64,000 nt of DNA from Escherichia coli (GTDB taxonomy: Bacteria > Pseudomonadota > Gammaproteobacteria > Enterobacterales > Enterobacteriaceae). The notes beneath the pieces are model-generated. The model did not search any database. It saw only the letters and a program-made list of their open reading frames with translations, and had not been told where the DNA came from. The stretch is taken from the NCBI RefSeq assembly GCF_013315695.1, contig NZ_CP054353.1; one strand, written 5' to 3'. Within the stretch, counting starts at the first letter, position 1; each line of letters begins with the position of its first letter. Both the position numbers and the translations under genes were made by a program. Below, piece by piece: positions 18,287-64,000 of this stretch.

Positions 18287-18363
18287 TCGCAGGTCCCTCA
18301 AGGGGAGAAAACTTAGGGCCTCTATGGGCTACAGAGTCATTATCGGGGATGGTGATTTTATTG

Positions 18364-18813
18364 TCAATTTATGAGCGATATGGCATTGATTGACTTGATG
18401 ACTGCCCTCTGTATGTCTGCAACCAACTCATGTGGCAAACATTGATTAAGATACCCCCGATAAGTCCTTGCTCTGTTTAATCGATTTCGACTGACTTGTT
18501 GTACCAGGTCGGCTTTAGCCCAACGTATCTGCTGATCAAAGAATTGCAGGTCATTGATAACATTACTGGCTATTTCAACATGCATTCCACGATTTAACTT
18601 GTCATGGTCGCGAGTGGTTGATAATGGAACGACGATACATGCGTTGCCATTAATTTTTCCGTTGAGCACGACAACCAACCTATTTTTTATCATCTCAGGT
18701 GGAATGCGGCCATCGTAATACGTCGTGCTGAACTGTCCATTCTGGCTAACAGGATAGTTACCAAAGTTGCATTCCAGTATTTCACCAACCTTGGGGCTGA
18801 AATTAATCGCCAC
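18364..18813 (-). CDS. yifN: PemK/MazF-like (toxin-fold) protein, YifN-like, with no adjacent antitoxin ORF
   Basis: ORF 18364-18855; GEI...RLVVVL...CIVVPLSTT pattern resembles the MazF/PemK fold; start placed at GTG 18813 preceded by TAAGGAGAGG RBS; the alternative GTG at 18855 lacks an RBS. Confidence 0.6.
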   Translation of the reverse strand: MAINFSPKVGEILECNFGNYPVSQNGQFSTTYYDGRIPPEMIKNRLVVVLNGKINGNACIVVPLSTTRDHDKLNRGMHVEIASNVINDLQFFDQQIRWAKADLVQQVSRNRLNRARTYRGYLNQCLPHELVADIQRAVIKSINAISLIN

Positions 18814-56877: not shown

Positions 56878-59040
56878 ATGGACGTTTCTTACCTGCTCGA
56901 CAGCCTTAATGACAAACAGCGCGAAGCGGTGGCCGCGCCACGCAGCAACCTTCTGGTGCTGGCGGGCGCGGGCAGTGGTAAGACGCGCGTACTGGTGCAT
57001 CGTATCGCCTGGCTGATGAGCGTGGAAAACTGCTCGCCATACTCGATTATGGCGGTAACGTTTACCAACAAAGCGGCGGCGGAGATGCGTCATCGTATCG
57101 GGCAGCTGATGGGCACCAGCCAGGGCGGCATGTGGGTCGGCACCTTCCACGGGCTGGCGCACCGTCTGCTGCGTGCGCACCATATGGACGCCAATCTGCC
57201 GCAGGATTTTCAGATCCTCGACAGCGAGGACCAGCTACGCCTGCTCAAACGCCTAATCAAGGCGATGAACCTCGACGAGAAGCAGTGGCCGCCGCGCCAG
57301 GCAATGTGGTACATCAACAGCCAGAAAGATGAAGGCCTGCGTCCACATCATATTCAAAGCTACGGTAATCCGGTGGAGCAGACCTGGCAGAAGGTGTATC
57401 AGGCGTATCAGGAAGCGTGTGACCGCGCGGGCCTGGTGGACTTCGCCGAGCTGCTGCTACGTGCTCACGAGTTGTGGCTTAACAAACCGCATATCCTTCA
57501 GCACTATCGCGAACGGTTTACCAATATCCTGGTGGACGAATTCCAGGATACCAACAACATTCAGTATGCGTGGATCCGCCTGCTGGCGGGCGATACCGGC
57601 AAAGTGATGATCGTTGGCGATGACGATCAGTCAATCTACGGCTGGCGCGGAGCGCAGGTGGAGAATATTCAGCGTTTCCTCAATGATTTCCCCGGTGCTG
57701 AAACTATCCGTCTGGAGCAGAACTACCGCTCTACCAGCAATATTCTGAGCGCCGCGAACGCCCTGATTGAAAACAACAACGGGCGTTTGGGTAAAAAACT
57801 GTGGACCGATGGCGCGGATGGTGAGCCTATTTCCCTCTATTGCGCTTTTAACGAACTCGATGAAGCGCGTTTTGTGGTTAACCGTATCAAAACCTGGCAG
57901 GACAACGGCGGGGCGCTTGCCGAGTGCGCCATTCTCTACCGCAGCAACGCCCAGTCGCGTGTGCTGGAAGAAGCACTGTTACAGGCAAGTATGCCGTACC
58001 GTATTTACGGCGGGATGCGCTTCTTCGAACGCCAGGAAATCAAAGACGCGCTCTCGTATCTGCGCCTGATTGCCAACCGCAACGACGACGCGGCCTTTGA
58101 GCGTGTGGTTAATACGCCAACGCGGGGTATTGGTGACCGGACGCTGGACGTGGTACGTCAGACATCGCGTGATCGCCAGTTAACACTCTGGCAGGCATGT
58201 CGTGAACTGTTGCAGGAAAAAGCCCTCGCCGGACGTGCTGCCAGTGCCTTACAGCGGTTTATGGAACTGATCGACGCCTTAGCGCAGGAAACTGCCGATA
58301 TGCCGCTGCATGTACAGACTGACCGGGTAATTAAAGACTCCGGCTTGCGCACCATGTACGAGCAGGAGAAGGGCGAAAAAGGTCAGACGCGTATCGAAAA
58401 CCTGGAGGAACTGGTGACGGCAACGCGCCAGTTCAGCTACAACGAAGAAGACGAAGATTTAATGCCGCTGCAGGCATTCCTCTCCCATGCGGCGCTGGAA
58501 GCGGGCGAGGGGCAGGCGGATACCTGGCAGGACGCGGTGCAGTTGATGACGCTACACTCGGCGAAAGGCCTGGAGTTCCCGCAGGTGTTTATCGTTGGTA
58601 TGGAAGAGGGCATGTTCCCAAGCCAGATGTCGCTGGATGAAGGCGGACGTCTGGAAGAAGAACGCCGTCTGGCCTACGTTGGCGTAACCCGCGCGATGCA
58701 GAAACTGACGCTGACCTACGCGGAAACTCGCCGTCTGTATGGCAAAGAGGTTTACCATCGCCCGTCGCGCTTTATCGGTGAGTTGCCGGAAGAGTGTGTG
58801 GAAGAGGTGCGCCTGCGCGCTACGGTAAGCCGCCCGGTCAGCCATCAACGGATGGGTACGCCGATGGTCGAGAACGACAGCGGCTACAAGCTCGGCCAGC
58901 GCGTACGCCACGCTAAGTTTGGTGAAGGCACCATCGTCAATATGGAAGGCAGCGGCGAGCATAGCCGTTTGCAGGTGGCATTCCAGGGCCAGGGTATTAA
59001 ATGGCTGGTGGCGGCTTATGCCCGACTGGAGACGGTGTAA
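56878..59040 (+). CDS. uvrD: DNA helicase II UvrD
   Basis: ORF 56692-59040; start at the ATG giving MDVSYLLDSLNDKQREAVAAP... (720 aa). Confidence 0.96.
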   Translation: MDVSYLLDSLNDKQREAVAAPRSNLLVLAGAGSGKTRVLVHRIAWLMSVENCSPYSIMAVTFTNKAAAEMRHRIGQLMGTSQGGMWVGTFHGLAHRLLRAHHMDANLPQDFQILDSEDQLRLLKRLIKAMNLDEKQWPPRQAMWYINSQKDEGLRPHHIQSYGNPVEQTWQKVYQAYQEACDRAGLVDFAELLLRAHELWLNKPHILQHYRERFTNILVDEFQDTNNIQYAWIRLLAGDTGKVMIVGDDDQSIYGWRGAQVENIQRFLNDFPGAETIRLEQNYRSTSNILSAANALIENNNGRLGKKLWTDGADGEPISLYCAFNELDEARFVVNRIKTWQDNGGALAECAILYRSNAQSRVLEEALLQASMPYRIYGGMRFFERQEIKDALSYLRLIANRNDDAAFERVVNTPTRGIGDRTLDVVRQTSRDRQLTLWQACRELLQEKALAGRAASALQRFMELIDALAQETADMPLHVQTDRVIKDSGLRTMYEQEKGEKGQTRIENLEELVTATRQFSYNEEDEDLMPLQAFLSHAALEAGEGQADTWQDAVQLMTLHSAKGLEFPQVFIVGMEEGMFPSQMSLDEGGRLEEERRLAYVGVTRAMQKLTLTYAETRRLYGKEVYHRPSRFIGELPEECVEEVRLRATVSRPVSHQRMGTPMVENDSGYKLGQRVRHAKFGEGTIVNMEGSGEHSRLQVAFQGQGIKWLVAAYARLETV

Positions 59041-59059
59041 TTTACAACTCCGTTGCAGG

Positions 59060-59080
59060 ATGCGGTGCGCCACACCGCAT
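59060..59080. terminator. Inverted repeat between convergent uvrD and the downstream minus-strand gene (possible terminator, no clear U-run)
   Basis: ATGCGGTG CGCCA CACCGCAT. Confidence 0.35.
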
Positions 59081-59094
59081 TCGGCATCAGCACC

Positions 59095-59997
59095 TTACTT
59101 AGCGCACTTCTTCACATCAATATTCCAGTCAGCACCAGACGCAACCTGATGTTTCTGCGCAAAATTATCCATATTCAGCGCCACGGAAACATTCAATAAG
59201 CTGTTCAGATACACCATCGGCTGGCCTTCCGGCACATCGCCGAAGCTTGCGACATATGGCATTTTCCCTGCGTATTTTTGCTGGGAACCTTCGGAAATGG
59301 TCACACACAACGTGTCGTTGAGTTTGATTCCTGCCTGATTCAGCAACTCGTCGCTGATATTGCTCCAGACGTTGCCGTACTGAATATCGAGAATTGGGAT
59401 ATTGCCCTTCACTTCACCTTTTGTTGCTTTTGCTTTCTGATAAGAAAGTTCGACAACTTTTGCAGGAAGCTCTGGCCCCACCTGTTCGAACGTGATCACT
59501 CCGGAAGCCAGACGCGCACCGGTGTAGGCATATACATCGCGACCATGGAAGGTATATGACTTTTCAGAACCTTTCAGGCGGTTAGCTTTTTCGTCGATTT
59601 CCCGGACGCTATCAATACCCAGAGTTTGTGCCACCAAAGTGAGCGTACCGTTATCTGGTGAAACGAAGTATTGACCGTTTTTGGTTTTCAGCACTACCGA
59701 TTTACGGTCAGTGCCTACGCCCGGATCGACCACGCTAACCAACACCGAACCTTGCGGCCAGTAACTGGCAGTCTGATACAGGCGATAAGCGCCTTCCCAG
59801 ATGTTATACGGTGGAATTTCGTGTGTTAAATCAAAGATTTTAAGATTATGGTCAACGCCGAATGCGACCCCTTTCATCGCCGAGACGGCACCATCTTTCA
59901 GGCTAAAATCAGTTTGTAAAATCAAAGCGTTATCCGCATAGGCGGATGATGATCCCAGACACGTTAATAAAAATAACGTTGCGAGCGTTTTTTTCAT
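59095..59997 (-). CDS. Secreted SAM hydroxide adenosyltransferase-family protein (DUF62; fluorinase/chlorinase-type fold) with N-terminal Sec signal peptide
   Basis: 300-aa ORF, ATG with AAGGGA RBS; signal peptide MKKTLATLFLLTCLGSSSAYA; blocks LTHEIPPYNIWEGA, VDPGVGTDRKSVV, SPDNGTLT, IQYGNVWSNI, QPMVYLNS align with SalL/FlA-type proteins. Confidence 0.8.
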   Translation of the reverse strand: MKKTLATLFLLTCLGSSSAYADNALILQTDFSLKDGAVSAMKGVAFGVDHNLKIFDLTHEIPPYNIWEGAYRLYQTASYWPQGSVLVSVVDPGVGTDRKSVVLKTKNGQYFVSPDNGTLTLVAQTLGIDSVREIDEKANRLKGSEKSYTFHGRDVYAYTGARLASGVITFEQVGPELPAKVVELSYQKAKATKGEVKGNIPILDIQYGNVWSNISDELLNQAGIKLNDTLCVTISEGSQQKYAGKMPYVASFGDVPEGQPMVYLNSLLNVSVALNMDNFAQKHQVASGADWNIDVKKCAK

Positions 59998-60508
59998 TTT
60001 TGTTTCCCTTCATTTATCTGATGATTTTCCAGCTGTGTAGCCAGTCCCAGTTTGTCTGGCCTCCTCGAGTGTACAATGCTTAACCTTTCCGCTCGACGGA
60101 AATCATGGTGACAAAAGGATAGCGTTGCCACGGGATTGCCCCGCCTTTCATATACATATGTGAAATTGTGCCATCAAGATAAAGCAGCTGCTCAACGTTC
60201 AGTTTCGCTTTGGCATAGCAGGCAAAATCATAAAAATTTGTCGCCTGCTGGCTCAACAAAAACACGGCGTTCCCTTGTTTATTAATCCCTACACCGTTAC
60301 GAATTTTACGCGAGGCGACGTTGGGATGAATACGCGGATTAATTACACCGTTTTCCATCAACAATGGCCCTGACTGCACCGCAAACTGAATCTCTTTACT
60401 GGTTTTAAAGGCATCCAGACGAACGATGCCGACTTTATCTCCCGCGACATAAAACACGCCGCCAGGACGAATAAAGAAATTCCCTTCACCTGAAGCGAAA
60501 TTTAACGC

Positions 60509-60520
60509 CACCTTCTGCTG
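60509..60520. repeat. IS4 target-site duplication, left copy (CACCTTCTGCTG)
   Basis: Identical 12-mer immediately flanks both IS4 ends. Confidence 0.9.
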
Positions 60521-61946
60521 TAATGCCAGTCAGTTAAGCAACTGACTGGCTCTTTTTCGGGGCTGTGGGGTATTTCCAGGGCCTCTCCTTTACCACTCTC
60601 GGGAAGGCCCTTTCCCTTCTTGTCGGTAATTTCACAAGTTGTCCCATACTTGCAAGATCGCGCATCAGCTCCGGTATACGTCCCGGTGAAGCGCCCTGCA
60701 ATGTCATCAGCATTCTCATCACCATTCCGCATGATTCTGAGAAACTCAGTTGATTCGGCCAGTAACCTTTCAGATGTTCCGCCATTTTAATCATCTGATA
60801 TCTCACCAGATTATAAGCCAGTAAGACACCCCACAGCTCTTGCTCCACAAGCTCCGGTTTTTTACTTCTCAGCGTCAGCCTGCTCAGTTGCATCGTCTGT
60901 TTTATCTCCCTGTATCCCAGTTCGATTTCCCAGCGATGACTGTACAGATCCGCCATTTCTCCTCCGGGGAAGCGCATGGCGTCCGTCATCGACGTCAGCA
61001 GATGGCAGACTTTTCCTTTGCGCGTCACGGTCAGCAGGCGGGCTGTCACTTCATTTCCCAGTCCCGGCCACTTTTTTCGTGCCTGCGGGCTGGTTTTCAG
61101 CTTCACCAGATGATCGCCTTTACCCAGTTTTCTGATCTCTTCATATTGCGCTCCCTTTCTGAGAGGTATCATCCAGTGGCGGTGTTCTCCCGCCAGGCTC
61201 CAGGCATTTAACAGTCCCAGTGAGTAATAACCTTTATCCATTAACGTCAGAGTGTTATCGCCGGTTTGTTCTATAAGTTGCTCAGCAAGCTCATTTTCGC
61301 TGTTCTTCATCGTGCCGAAGGCTGCAGCCGTCAGCAGATGGCTGGTCAGTTCCATCTGGCAGACCATTTTGACCTGCGGGTAGAGCGCCGGGTTCCCGGC
61401 ATGTGTCTGGCGGGGGAAGGCTGCATCGTTCTCTGGTGTATCCGGTGTGCGCCAGAACACACCATCGATGGCCAGCAGGGTCAGGCCGCACCAGTGCGGA
61501 TGCGGCGTGGCGTTATGCCAGAGCTGCGCTGTTTTCGTGAACACGCGGCGGACAGCCTCACTTCCCAGGCGCTGGCGGGCCTGAATAACGGCACTGGGGG
61601 CAACGAAGGGGCGATTGCCCGGCAGCATGATGTCCAGGCGATTCACAATCTGGTGAAGAGGTTCTTTACGCTCAAGCGCCATGCCAACAATACACCAGAC
61701 CATCATTTCGAGGGGAAGACGGCGCTTGCGTAGCGTTACAGTACCTGATTCGGCAAGGCAACGAGAGATGAGTTCGGGGTCGAGGTAATCCCCCAGAGAA
61801 GTCAGTGGGTTACGCAGAGAATCGTAACGGGATACCAGATCAAGAGCCTGTCCAATGTGCATAAAAAAATCCGGAAACAAGTGAGCGTTTCCGGATTCTT
61901 ACACAGCCACTGGATCGGTCAACTGATCCTTAACTGATCGGCATTA
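60521..61946 (-). mobile_element. Insertion sequence IS4, complete (1426 bp)
   Basis: Terminal inverted repeats TAATGCCAGTCAGTTAAG... and ...CCTTAACTGATCGGCATTA; single transposase ORF; flanked by a perfect 12-bp direct repeat. Confidence 0.95.
60534..61862 (-). CDS. insG: IS4 transposase (DDE family)
   Basis: ORF 60534-61880; ATG at 61862 gives [20 protein letters not shown]... (442 aa). Confidence 0.95.
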
Positions 61947-61958
61947 CACCTTCTGCTG
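61947..61958. repeat. IS4 target-site duplication, right copy (CACCTTCTGCTG)
   Basis: Identical 12-mer immediately flanks both IS4 ends. Confidence 0.9.
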
Positions 61959-62651
61959 ACCGTTTTCGATGTACAAACCGAGCGGCGCATAGCTTTCATC
62001 ATAGATGCCGCCGTTCATCGCCATCTGCACCTGACCCTGACTATTCATATCCGCCAGCAGAGCATGTAACGTTCCCCACGCTTCGCCATTGGCTTTTTGC
62101 CAGTACATTTTCACCCGCTCTGTTTGAGGATTAACGGTATACGCCTGTACGGTCAGCGTCGGATCTGAGAGTGCGCAATCTTCAGCGGCAACAGCAAACA
62201 AGGGAAGTAAGGTGAGGGTGAGAAAAATCCGTTTGAGATTCAAGGTGATCATTCCTTTACCAATGAGTAGCCGATGCGCCATTATAGGTCCTGGATGTGG
62301 GATTTTTTTATCCTGTTAGCGACCTTGACGAGTACCAAAAAGCGCGAAGTTCAACTATTGTTCTGTGGTGTTCTGTTGCGTGTTGACGGCAAAATTTTGC
62401 TGGCGTAACATGCGCGCACGATCACTCTAAGAGGACATTCGCCTTGGACACACCCAGTAGATACTGGCTCACTATCCTGTCATCCAGGATCAACTCCTAA
62501 GGCTATCCCTTTTTGCTGATAGCCTTAGCGGTTGTCAGCGACCTCAATTTTTCCCGTCGCGCTGAGTCAGGCTGTTTAATGGTCTGAAACCCAATTTGTT
62601 TCTGTGTGCCCACCGAACTGTCCGATATTTTAAGCATTGGGAGTCCCGGTC

Positions 62652-63602
62652 ATGCTGAGCGCATTTCAACTGGAAAATAACCGACTGACCCGGCTGGAAG
62701 TCGAAGAGTCACAACCCCTTGTAAATGCAGTATGGATTGATCTTGTCGAACCGGACGACGACGAGCGACTGCGCGTACAATCTGAACTTGGTCAGAGCCT
62801 GGCAACCCGCCCGGAACTGGAAGACATCGAAGCATCGGCACGTTTCTTTGAAGACGATGACGGCCTGCATATTCACTCCTTCTTCTTCTTTGAAGATGCG
62901 GAAGATCACGCCGGTAACTCCACTGTGGCATTTACCATCCGTGATGGTCGTCTGTTTACTTTGCGTGAGCGTGAACTGCCCGCTTTTCGTCTGTATCGTA
63001 TGCGTGCCCGTAGCCAGTCGATGGTAGACGGTAACGCCTACGAGCTGCTGTTGGATCTGTTCGAAACCAAAATCGAACAGCTGGCAGATGAAATTGAAAA
63101 TATCTATAGCGACTTGGAGCAGTTGAGCCGGGTGATTATGGAAGGGCATCAGGGCGATGAGTATGACGAAGCGCTCTCTACGCTGGCGGAACTGGAAGAT
63201 ATCGGCTGGAAAGTTCGCCTGTGTCTGATGGATACCCAGCGTGCGCTCAACTTCCTGGTACGCAAGGCGCGTTTACCGGGTGGGCAACTGGAGCAGGCGC
63301 GTGAAATCCTGCGAGATATCGAATCCCTGCTGCCGCATAACGAATCCCTGTTCCAGAAGGTGAACTTCCTGATGCAGGCGGCGATGGGCTTTATCAATAT
63401 CGAGCAGAACCGCATCATCAAAATCTTCTCGGTGGTATCCGTGGTGTTCCTGCCGCCAACGCTGGTTGCTTCCAGCTACGGGATGAACTTTGAGTTTATG
63501 CCAGAACTGAAGTGGAGTTTCGGCTACCCAGGCGCGATTATCTTTATGATCCTCGCGGGCCTGGCACCGTATCTGTACTTTAAGCGGAAGAACTGGTTGT
63601 AA
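62652..63602 (+). CDS. corA: Magnesium/cobalt transport protein CorA
   Basis: ORF 62637-63602; start at the ATG giving [20 protein letters not shown]...; C-terminal YGMNF motif; 316 aa. Confidence 0.96.
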
Positions 63603-63626
63603 CTTTACGATGTCGCTGTGAGTAAG

Positions 63627-64000
63627 TTAGTGTGCTGACAGCGACATTTTAGCCGAGGGAATCGCAGATAACATAATTGTTGTGAATAATATCCATGCTA
63701 CGTTGAGTTGGACGCTTAATGAATCACATCTCACCCCTTCAATTACTGCCGAGATAATAGAAAAAAGTGTCAAACCCAATGAAATCAATACAAAATAGAT
63801 TGCCTTACATCCAGTATCTCTTATTCTTTTAGCTCCGATATTGATATTCGCATACGTATTAGTGATGACCAGAATGAAACTCAAAGCCAGGTTGATATCA
63901 TTCAAAGTTATTAATATTGTCCATGATGTTAATGTGTAGATTATAAACTGCAAACGTGATAAATGCTCAAGCCTGGATGGGTATAATATATTTCTAATAG
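63627..64000 (-). CDS. Small hydrophobic membrane protein (yigF-like position), probably 5-prime truncated by the window end
   Basis: AT-rich ORF open to the right edge of the window (no in-frame stop upstream of the reported TTG at 63953). Confidence 0.4.
   Translation of the reverse strand, partial: IRNILYPSRLEHLSRLQFIIYTLTSWTILITLNDINLALSFILVITNTYANINIGAKRIRDTGCKAIYFVLISLGLTLFSIISAVIEGVRCDSLSVQLNVAWILFTTIMLSAIPSAKMSLSAH

Follow-up and report, generated by a model that had tools for sequence, protein, structure and literature searches.

A recent IS4 insertion in Escherichia coli yigE and a likely recurrent IS4 target at codons 109-112

DDE transposases make staggered cuts in their target, and repair of the resulting gaps gives rise to direct duplications of the target bases. 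For IS4 itself, the literature of 1979-1984 reportedly described how one galT site was entered repeatedly, and an AAA-N20-TTT target is said to have been proposed at that time. IS186, another element of the IS4 family, repeatedly enters the lon promoter of E. coli in both orientations through a sequence-specific choice of target. Copies of one element are treated by ISfinder as isoforms when they share roughly >95% nucleotide and >98% amino acid identity. The definition of the IS4 family includes the Y(2)R(3)E(6)K motif of its transposases, and the IS4 subgroup shows target duplications of 10-13 bp together with specificity in the arms of the target (PMC2266710). In mutation-accumulation lines of E. 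coli K-12, IS4 transposes, and 8 new insertions have been recorded (PMC5009759).

The insertion described here lies in a 64-kb stretch of E. coli DNA, and "the window" denotes the whole of that stretch. The window is 100% identical to the corresponding DNA of E. coli MSB1_4I (NZ_LR898874.1), which was isolated from a human rectal swab, and the remainder of the window is an ordinary rrn-ilv-rho-wec-hem-xerC-uvrD-corA region. The element, its ends, the duplicated target bases and the transposase gene are the following:

60521..61946, minus strand (the transposase strand): complete IS4, 1426 bp, with bounds taken from the direct and inverted repeats and 99.7% identity to the K-12 IS4
60509..60520, no strand: left copy of the target-site duplication, CACCTTCTGCTG, a 12-mer present only twice in the window by repeat search
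61947..61958, no strand: right copy of the target-site duplication, CACCTTCTGCTG, which is yigE codons 109-112
61929..61946, no strand: terminal inverted repeat at the transposase-proximal end (IRL), TAATGCCGATCAGTTAAG read inward
60521..60538, no strand: terminal inverted repeat at the transposase-distal end (IRR), TAATGCCAGTCAGTTAAG
60534..61862, minus strand: IS4 transposase CDS, 442 aa and a stop codon, an uninterrupted ORF with its start ATG at 61862 and its stop at 60534-60536

Both a script and the repeat search find exactly two copies of the 12-mer CACCTTCTGCTG in the 64-kb window. The duplication is exactly 12 bp long, as the bases beyond the two copies differ and allow no extension on either side, and the probability that such a perfect duplication arises by chance is about 4^-12. 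Between the two copies lie 1426 bp (60521-61946), whose ends, TAATGCCAGTCAGTTAAG and the inverted TAATGCCGATCAGTTAAG, agree at 16 of 18 positions. The element thus has the length of about 1426 bp and the imperfect 18-bp inverted repeats beginning TAATGCC that characterize IS4, and its perfect 12-bp duplication falls within the 11-13 bp of that element. The transposase scores 304 bits against the NCBIfam model NF033592 (IS4 family transposase; cut-off 115), its Pfam matches are Nterm_IS4 and DDE_Tnp_1, and it has the Y(2)R(3)E(6)K motif of the family at residue 307; a single ORF, a DDE domain and this motif place it among the IS4-family DDE transposases. PGAP assigns the product WP_000483766.1 to a longer, TTG-start form of the same ORF. 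Compared with the prototype IS4 of K-12, the element is identical at 1422/1426 nucleotides and 440/442 amino acids (99.7% and 99.5%), which lies inside the isoform range. By length, ends, duplication and sequence identity it is IS4 itself, a known element acting as expected.

The sequence-only reading of the window had described a complete IS4 with both terminal inverted repeats, a perfect 12-bp target duplication and an intact 442-aa transposase. All three descriptions were borne out: the flanking repeats are present and perfect on re-reading, the transposase carries no frameshift, and the observation is confirmed in every checkable detail. The insertion itself is already annotated in RefSeq, where NZ_LR898874.1 has an 'IS4-like element IS4 family transposase' between two 'phosphodiester glycosidase family protein' pseudogene halves, and is hence already known; that annotation had been missed.

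The interrupted gene is identified as yigE by its uvrD-corA synteny, its 254-aa product and its NAGPA domain, and its position is that of K-12 b4482. The two parts of the gene lie on either side of the element:

61947..62282, minus strand: yigE 5' fragment, codons 1-112 (ORF 61944..62282, 112 aa; PGAP pseudogene 'missing C-terminus')
60080..60520, minus strand: yigE 3' fragment, consisting of the duplicated codons 109-112 followed by codons 113-254 and the stop (PGAP pseudogene 'missing N-terminus')

The duplicated bases encode QQKV at codons 109-112, and a TAA contributed by the IS4 terminus (61944-61946) ends the yigE frame directly after codon 112. When 60080-60520 is joined to 61959-62282, a single 254-codon frame results, whose 765 nt match the uninterrupted yigE of strain MS 21-1 at every position. 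The claim that removal of the element with one repeat restores the gene therefore held, and the claimed inactivation of yigE is a sound expectation for a product stopping at residue 112 of 254. In the restored 254-aa YigE, the NAGPA domain (Pfam) covers residues 84-237; what the insertion leaves is only the signal-peptide-like N-terminus together with 29 domain residues. Truncation after residue 112 would be expected to abolish YigE function. The product of yigE is a secreted protein of the NAGPA/DUF2233 'phosphodiester glycosidase' family. To our knowledge, no essential role of yigE and no phenotype of its disruption is known.

Several comparisons bear on the age of the insertion. The IS4 copy in yigE is identical at 1426/1426 positions to the copy between aroA and ycaL in the same MSB1_4I genome, and it is also identical to the copy of USVAST219 between bamD and raiA. 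The MSB1_4I genome has IS4 at about 18 places, compared with a median of 2 places per genome, and the variant present in the window (the one encoding WP_000483766.1) occurs at many other sites. A query made of the flanks without the IS matched MS 21-1, OZ546925 and OZ546911 in one piece at 99.9%, showing an empty site and an intact yigE in each of them. Because the site is empty in these near-identical genomes, the insertion is younger than the split from them. Over 10.6 kb of flanks, 6 SNPs separate MS 21-1 from the window strain, and 2 SNPs separate the sister isolate AF3 from it; AF3 has IS4 at the same yigE site in the opposite orientation. Judged by these comparisons, the yigE insertion is recent; the identical aroA-ycaL copy, the approximately 18 IS4 places, the empty site of MS 21-1 and the reversed element of AF3 all support the proposal that it is recent and possibly still mobile.

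The occurrence of the same insertion elsewhere was surveyed in 5426 complete E. coli genomes with a 2203-bp query of yigE plus IS4, sought in collinear coverage, and with the same query carrying the IS reversed. IS4 was found at the exact yigE position in 35 of the 5426 genomes, 19 in the window orientation and 16 in the opposite one, and these are not 35 independent events, since H117-H124 have identical scores, as have H33-H38, and each group is probably one clone. In 19 of the 21 loci that were fetched, the junctions coincide and the identical 12-bp duplication stands on each side of IS4; the rearranged loci of VL40 and IAI39 retain it on one side only. These loci also bear on the idea that the MSB1_4I assembly contains a misplaced repeat and that yigE holds no real IS4. 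Repeats are a common source of misassembly, and this genome has its IS4 at about 18 places. However, the element is flanked by a perfect 12-bp duplication, and the same structure is present in 34 other independently assembled complete genomes. An assembly artefact was rejected on these two grounds, and its probability is considered negligible.

A further explanation is that all of these loci descend from a single old insertion, which was afterwards inherited or exchanged between lineages by homologous recombination, in which case the site would be no hot spot. The loci do share one position and one 12-bp duplication, and some genome groups (H33-H38 and H117-H124) are clonal. On the other hand, at least 9 yigE alleles carry IS4, SNPs that distinguish these alleles lie as little as 21 bp and 10 bp from the junctions, and the element is found in both orientations (19 and 16), even on one and the same yigE allele, as in ECE313 versus PEC403 and CE-O153H30. 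Moreover, MSB1_4I and AF3 have opposite orientations in flanks that are only 2 SNPs apart over 10.6 kb, and the site is empty in the strains most closely related to that of the window. The IS4 variants are also incongruent with the yigE alleles: SW070917 and EC24 share the K-12 yigE allele and have different IS4 variants, while JNEC-KY173 and SW070917 share the K-12-type IS4 variant on very different yigE alleles, although gene conversion among copies of IS4 could make this argument less clear. The carriers include genomes with and without the SAM_HAT gene downstream of yigE, and they have three different corA-rarD spacers. One ancestral insertion was rejected on the evidence of orientation, alleles and IS variants, and it is regarded as highly improbable.

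The number of independent insertions at the yigE site is at least about a dozen. No paper treating yigE and IS4 together was found in the searchable full-text literature, and a search for yigE alone returned almost only author names. What is added here beyond the known annotation is that codons 109-112 of yigE appear, from the compared loci, to be a recurrent and orientation-independent IS4 hot spot, which the sequence-only reading had missed.

Five other IS4 sites were reconstructed to describe the target: aroA-ycaL, bamD-raiA, tas-ygdR, baeR-yegP and the K-12 site yjgZ-nanX. All five are symmetric, with a duplicated core of 12-13 bp of the form CAGC...GCTG and with AAAACGN read inward on both sides. 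The resulting target consensus is AAAACGN, then CAGC...GCTG, then NCGTTTT, and its arms are palindromic. The yigE target consists of AATTTAACGC, CACCTTCTGCTG and ACCGTTTTCG in this order. A weight matrix was built from the ten half-sites of the five other sites, leaving yigE out, and was scanned along the IS-less window (62.6 kb). The yigE site ranks first in the restored window with 20.6 bits, compared with 15.5 for the runner-up and 18.3 for the best of 20 shuffles, the model being drawn from five sites (ten half-sites) only and the shuffles having kept mononucleotide content only. Its place at the top of this ranking points to an IS4 target hot spot, and the symmetry of the target accounts for the roughly equal use of the two orientations (19 and 16). 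Taking this together with the dozen or more independent insertions and the lack of an orientation bias, codons 109-112 of yigE are likely to be among the strongest natural IS4 targets of E. coli, acting through a long palindromic target composed of AAAACGN, CAGC-N4-5-GCTG and NCGTTTT.

The same ranking is relevant to another reading of the recurrence, in which the main cause would be selection favouring the loss of YigE or a change in the expression of neighbouring genes, and not the target preference of IS4. Consistent with selection, yigE has been hit repeatedly, AF3 has a second insertion in yigE that is an IS1, and the gene has no known essential role. Selection for gene loss would, however, distribute the insertions over the length of yigE and bring in other IS types as well, whereas every IS4 sits at the same nucleotide, and this nucleotide lies in the top match within 62.6 kb to a model built from unrelated, intergenic IS4 sites. 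In addition, the orientation is unbiased, and carriers exist both with and without the downstream DUF62 gene. Selection as the main cause is therefore very improbable, and some contribution from selection for yigE loss may nevertheless be present.

The consequences of the insertion for the gene downstream of yigE depend on the following features:

59095..59997, minus strand: SAM hydrolase / SAM_HAT (former DUF62) family protein (Pfam), 300 aa, with an N-terminal signal-peptide-like sequence
59998..60079, minus strand: spacer of 82 bp from the end of yigE to the beginning of the SAM_HAT gene
61865..61900, minus strand: hairpin with a U-run behind it, immediately preceding the transposase ATG, from inverted repeat and RNA fold
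61895..61922, minus strand: sigma-70-like match TTGACC-16-AAGAAT with a TG, within the transposase-proximal end of IS4, a candidate transposase promoter by consensus match only
60525..60550, plus strand: perfect 11-bp hairpin at the transposase-distal end, terminator-like only for plus-strand transcription entering IS4

The downstream gene matches the Pfam families SAM_HAT_N (1.8e-52) and SAM_HAT_C (3.9e-18), which establishes its family membership, and all NCBIfam equivalog and specific enzyme models stay below their cut-offs; by these profile matches, it is best described as a family member without an assigned enzyme. In K-12, yigE is intact and the SAM_HAT gene is absent. The homology between K-12 and the window stops exactly at the yigE stop codon, and K-12 has a REP-like spacer there. 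Within the 82-bp spacer of the window, the scan detects no terminator-like site, and the fold is no better than that of shuffles (z = -0.03), so co-transcription of yigE and the SAM_HAT gene is plausible.

Inside the element, the terminator scan reports no minus-strand site. It misses the structure at 61865-61900 because it prolongs the stem into the U-run, and RNA folding was used for this hairpin. The fold of 61850-61946 reaches -35.4 kcal/mol (z = -4.6), with 0 of 200 shuffles as good, and the outer stem of the 61865-61900 hairpin pairs with the AUG of the transposase. This hairpin probably blocks transcription and translation entering from yigE. Protection against read-through is known from other insertion sequences, and the arrangement at 61865-61900 resembles such protection. 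A promoter scan of 58900-62700 yields 5 sigma-70-like matches compared with 3.5 +/- 2.0 in shuffles, and thus gives no reliable indication of a separate promoter for the SAM_HAT gene. At the distal end, the hairpin has no U-run on the minus strand, and transposase transcripts may therefore run into the 3' half of yigE and beyond. The in-silico evidence on the suggested polarity is mixed, and an effect of this kind on the SAM_HAT (DUF62) gene is plausible. A transposase transcript reading out of IS4 could offset such polarity. The strains with IS4 in yigE include some that have no SAM_HAT gene downstream.

Taken together, it is very likely that IS4 recently transposed into codons 109-112 of yigE, that this site is used repeatedly through a target preference of the element, that YigE is truncated, and that downstream expression is probably reduced. 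In mechanistic terms, by analogy with other DDE transposases, the IS4 enzyme would cut its target with a stagger of 12 bp, and gap repair would generate the CACCTTCTGCTG duplication. IS4 would prefer a long, roughly palindromic target in which AAAACGN/NCGTTTT arms surround a core of 12-13 bp (CAGC...GCTG). Since yigE holds the best match to this pattern in 62.6 kb, IS4 would have entered the same position many separate times, in either orientation and in different lineages. The insertion would truncate YigE after residue 112, with a probable loss of function. The hairpin and U-run of IS4 would then stand in the path of yigE transcripts, and expression of the SAM-hydrolase-family gene from the yigE promoter would probably be reduced.

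As a single event, the insertion matters little, being that of a textbook IS and already annotated in RefSeq. The recurrence is of modest wider value, as natural populations show the strength of IS4 target selection and the target consensus is refined. Identical IS4 insertions in yigE are homoplasic and hence unsuitable as markers of common descent, and the site is a possible endpoint of IS4-mediated inversions, as in IAI39. If yigE is truly a strong natural target, it would provide a ready natural substrate for studying how IS4-type DDE transposases read their target, and would serve as a predictable polymorphic marker and rearrangement endpoint, of which the IAI39 inversion is an example.

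The closest described relative of the element is the K-12 IS4 (insG, NC_000913.3 4502090-4503515), which has the same length of 1426 bp, the same ends and a 12-bp duplication; the K-12 copy lies in the yjgZ-nanX spacer, whereas the window copy, 4 SNPs apart, lies in yigE. The repeated entry of IS186 into the lon promoter resembles the use of yigE by IS4 in that one chromosomal site is entered in both orientations. In contrast, IS186 is another element, its target is GC-rich, and it enters a regulatory region with a clear phenotype. The yigE locus agrees with the classical target specificity of IS4 in the reuse of one precise site, in duplications of 11-13 bp and in A-/T-rich arms round a core. 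Unlike the galT case, the reuse of yigE is natural and population-wide, with 35 genomes, and the consensus obtained here is more detailed.

E. coli IAI39 (NC_011750.1 3072761-3079635) carries an IS4 at positions 2942-4367 of the locus fetched for comparison (L029). At one junction the element abuts the 3' half of yigE through the usual CACCTTCTGCTG; at the other it abuts DNA from the ygcG/queE side, and the IS4-type target there is a different one, CAGCCTTCGGGCTG. These junctions look like the product of a large rearrangement in which an IS4 at the yigE hot spot recombined with a second IS4 copy. In strain VL40 (L027, locus 1642-1751), a 52-bp IS4 remnant and 58 bp of unrelated DNA separate the yigE 3' half from a complete, oppositely oriented IS4. 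The remnant derives from the transposase-distal end of an IS4, and the arrangement suggests that IS4 mediated a secondary rearrangement at the yigE site. The IS4 variant of VL40 is also the variant present in O121 201805972 and VL7S7.

The IS4 of strain BEN5202 (L015, locus 5442-6874) owes its length of 1433 bp to seven scattered single-base insertions, and its transposase is frameshifted according to PGAP. These insertions look like long-read indel error rather than genuine decay. The IS4 in the tas-ygdR spacer of strain AR_0013 (L020) has a 13-bp duplication whose copies differ by one mismatch (CAGCATCCGGCTG vs CAGCAGCCGGCTG), which suggests that this copy is an older insertion or a recombinant. 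Besides IS4, isolate AF3 (L016, NZ_OZ547117.1) has an IS1A with a 9-bp duplication in the 3' half of yigE (locus 5210-5977), and apart from this its flanks are nearly identical to those of the window, with 2 SNPs in 10.6 kb.

The DNA on both sides of yigE is also variable. The SAM_HAT (former DUF62) gene in the uvrD-yigE interval is a present/absent polymorphism (window 59041-60079 vs K-12 locus L002 3147-3292); in K-12, O121, and other strains, its place is taken by a REP-like spacer, and the stop codon of yigE is the exact point at which homology between the window and K-12 ends. The gene product has a signal-peptide-like N-terminus, and export, if it occurs, would be an uncommon trait among SAM-dependent enzymes. 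On the downstream side of corA, the spacer that separates it from rarD varies among strains (window 63603-64000 and loci L003-L015).

Contents of the corA-rarD spacer
Type 1: yigF/yigG
Type 2: DUF943 and YPO3983 gene pair
Type 3: one 300-nt hypothetical gene (the type found in the window)

In the same region, rarD of SW070917 is interrupted by IS1B, and an IS1A adjoins yigG in O121 and VL7S7.

Between rep and ppiC, the annotation places an intact toxin gene of the PemK/MazF family at window ~18363-18812 (NZ_LR898874.1 5196183-5196632) and shows no adjacent antitoxin gene. At this position, K-12 has the yifN pseudogene.
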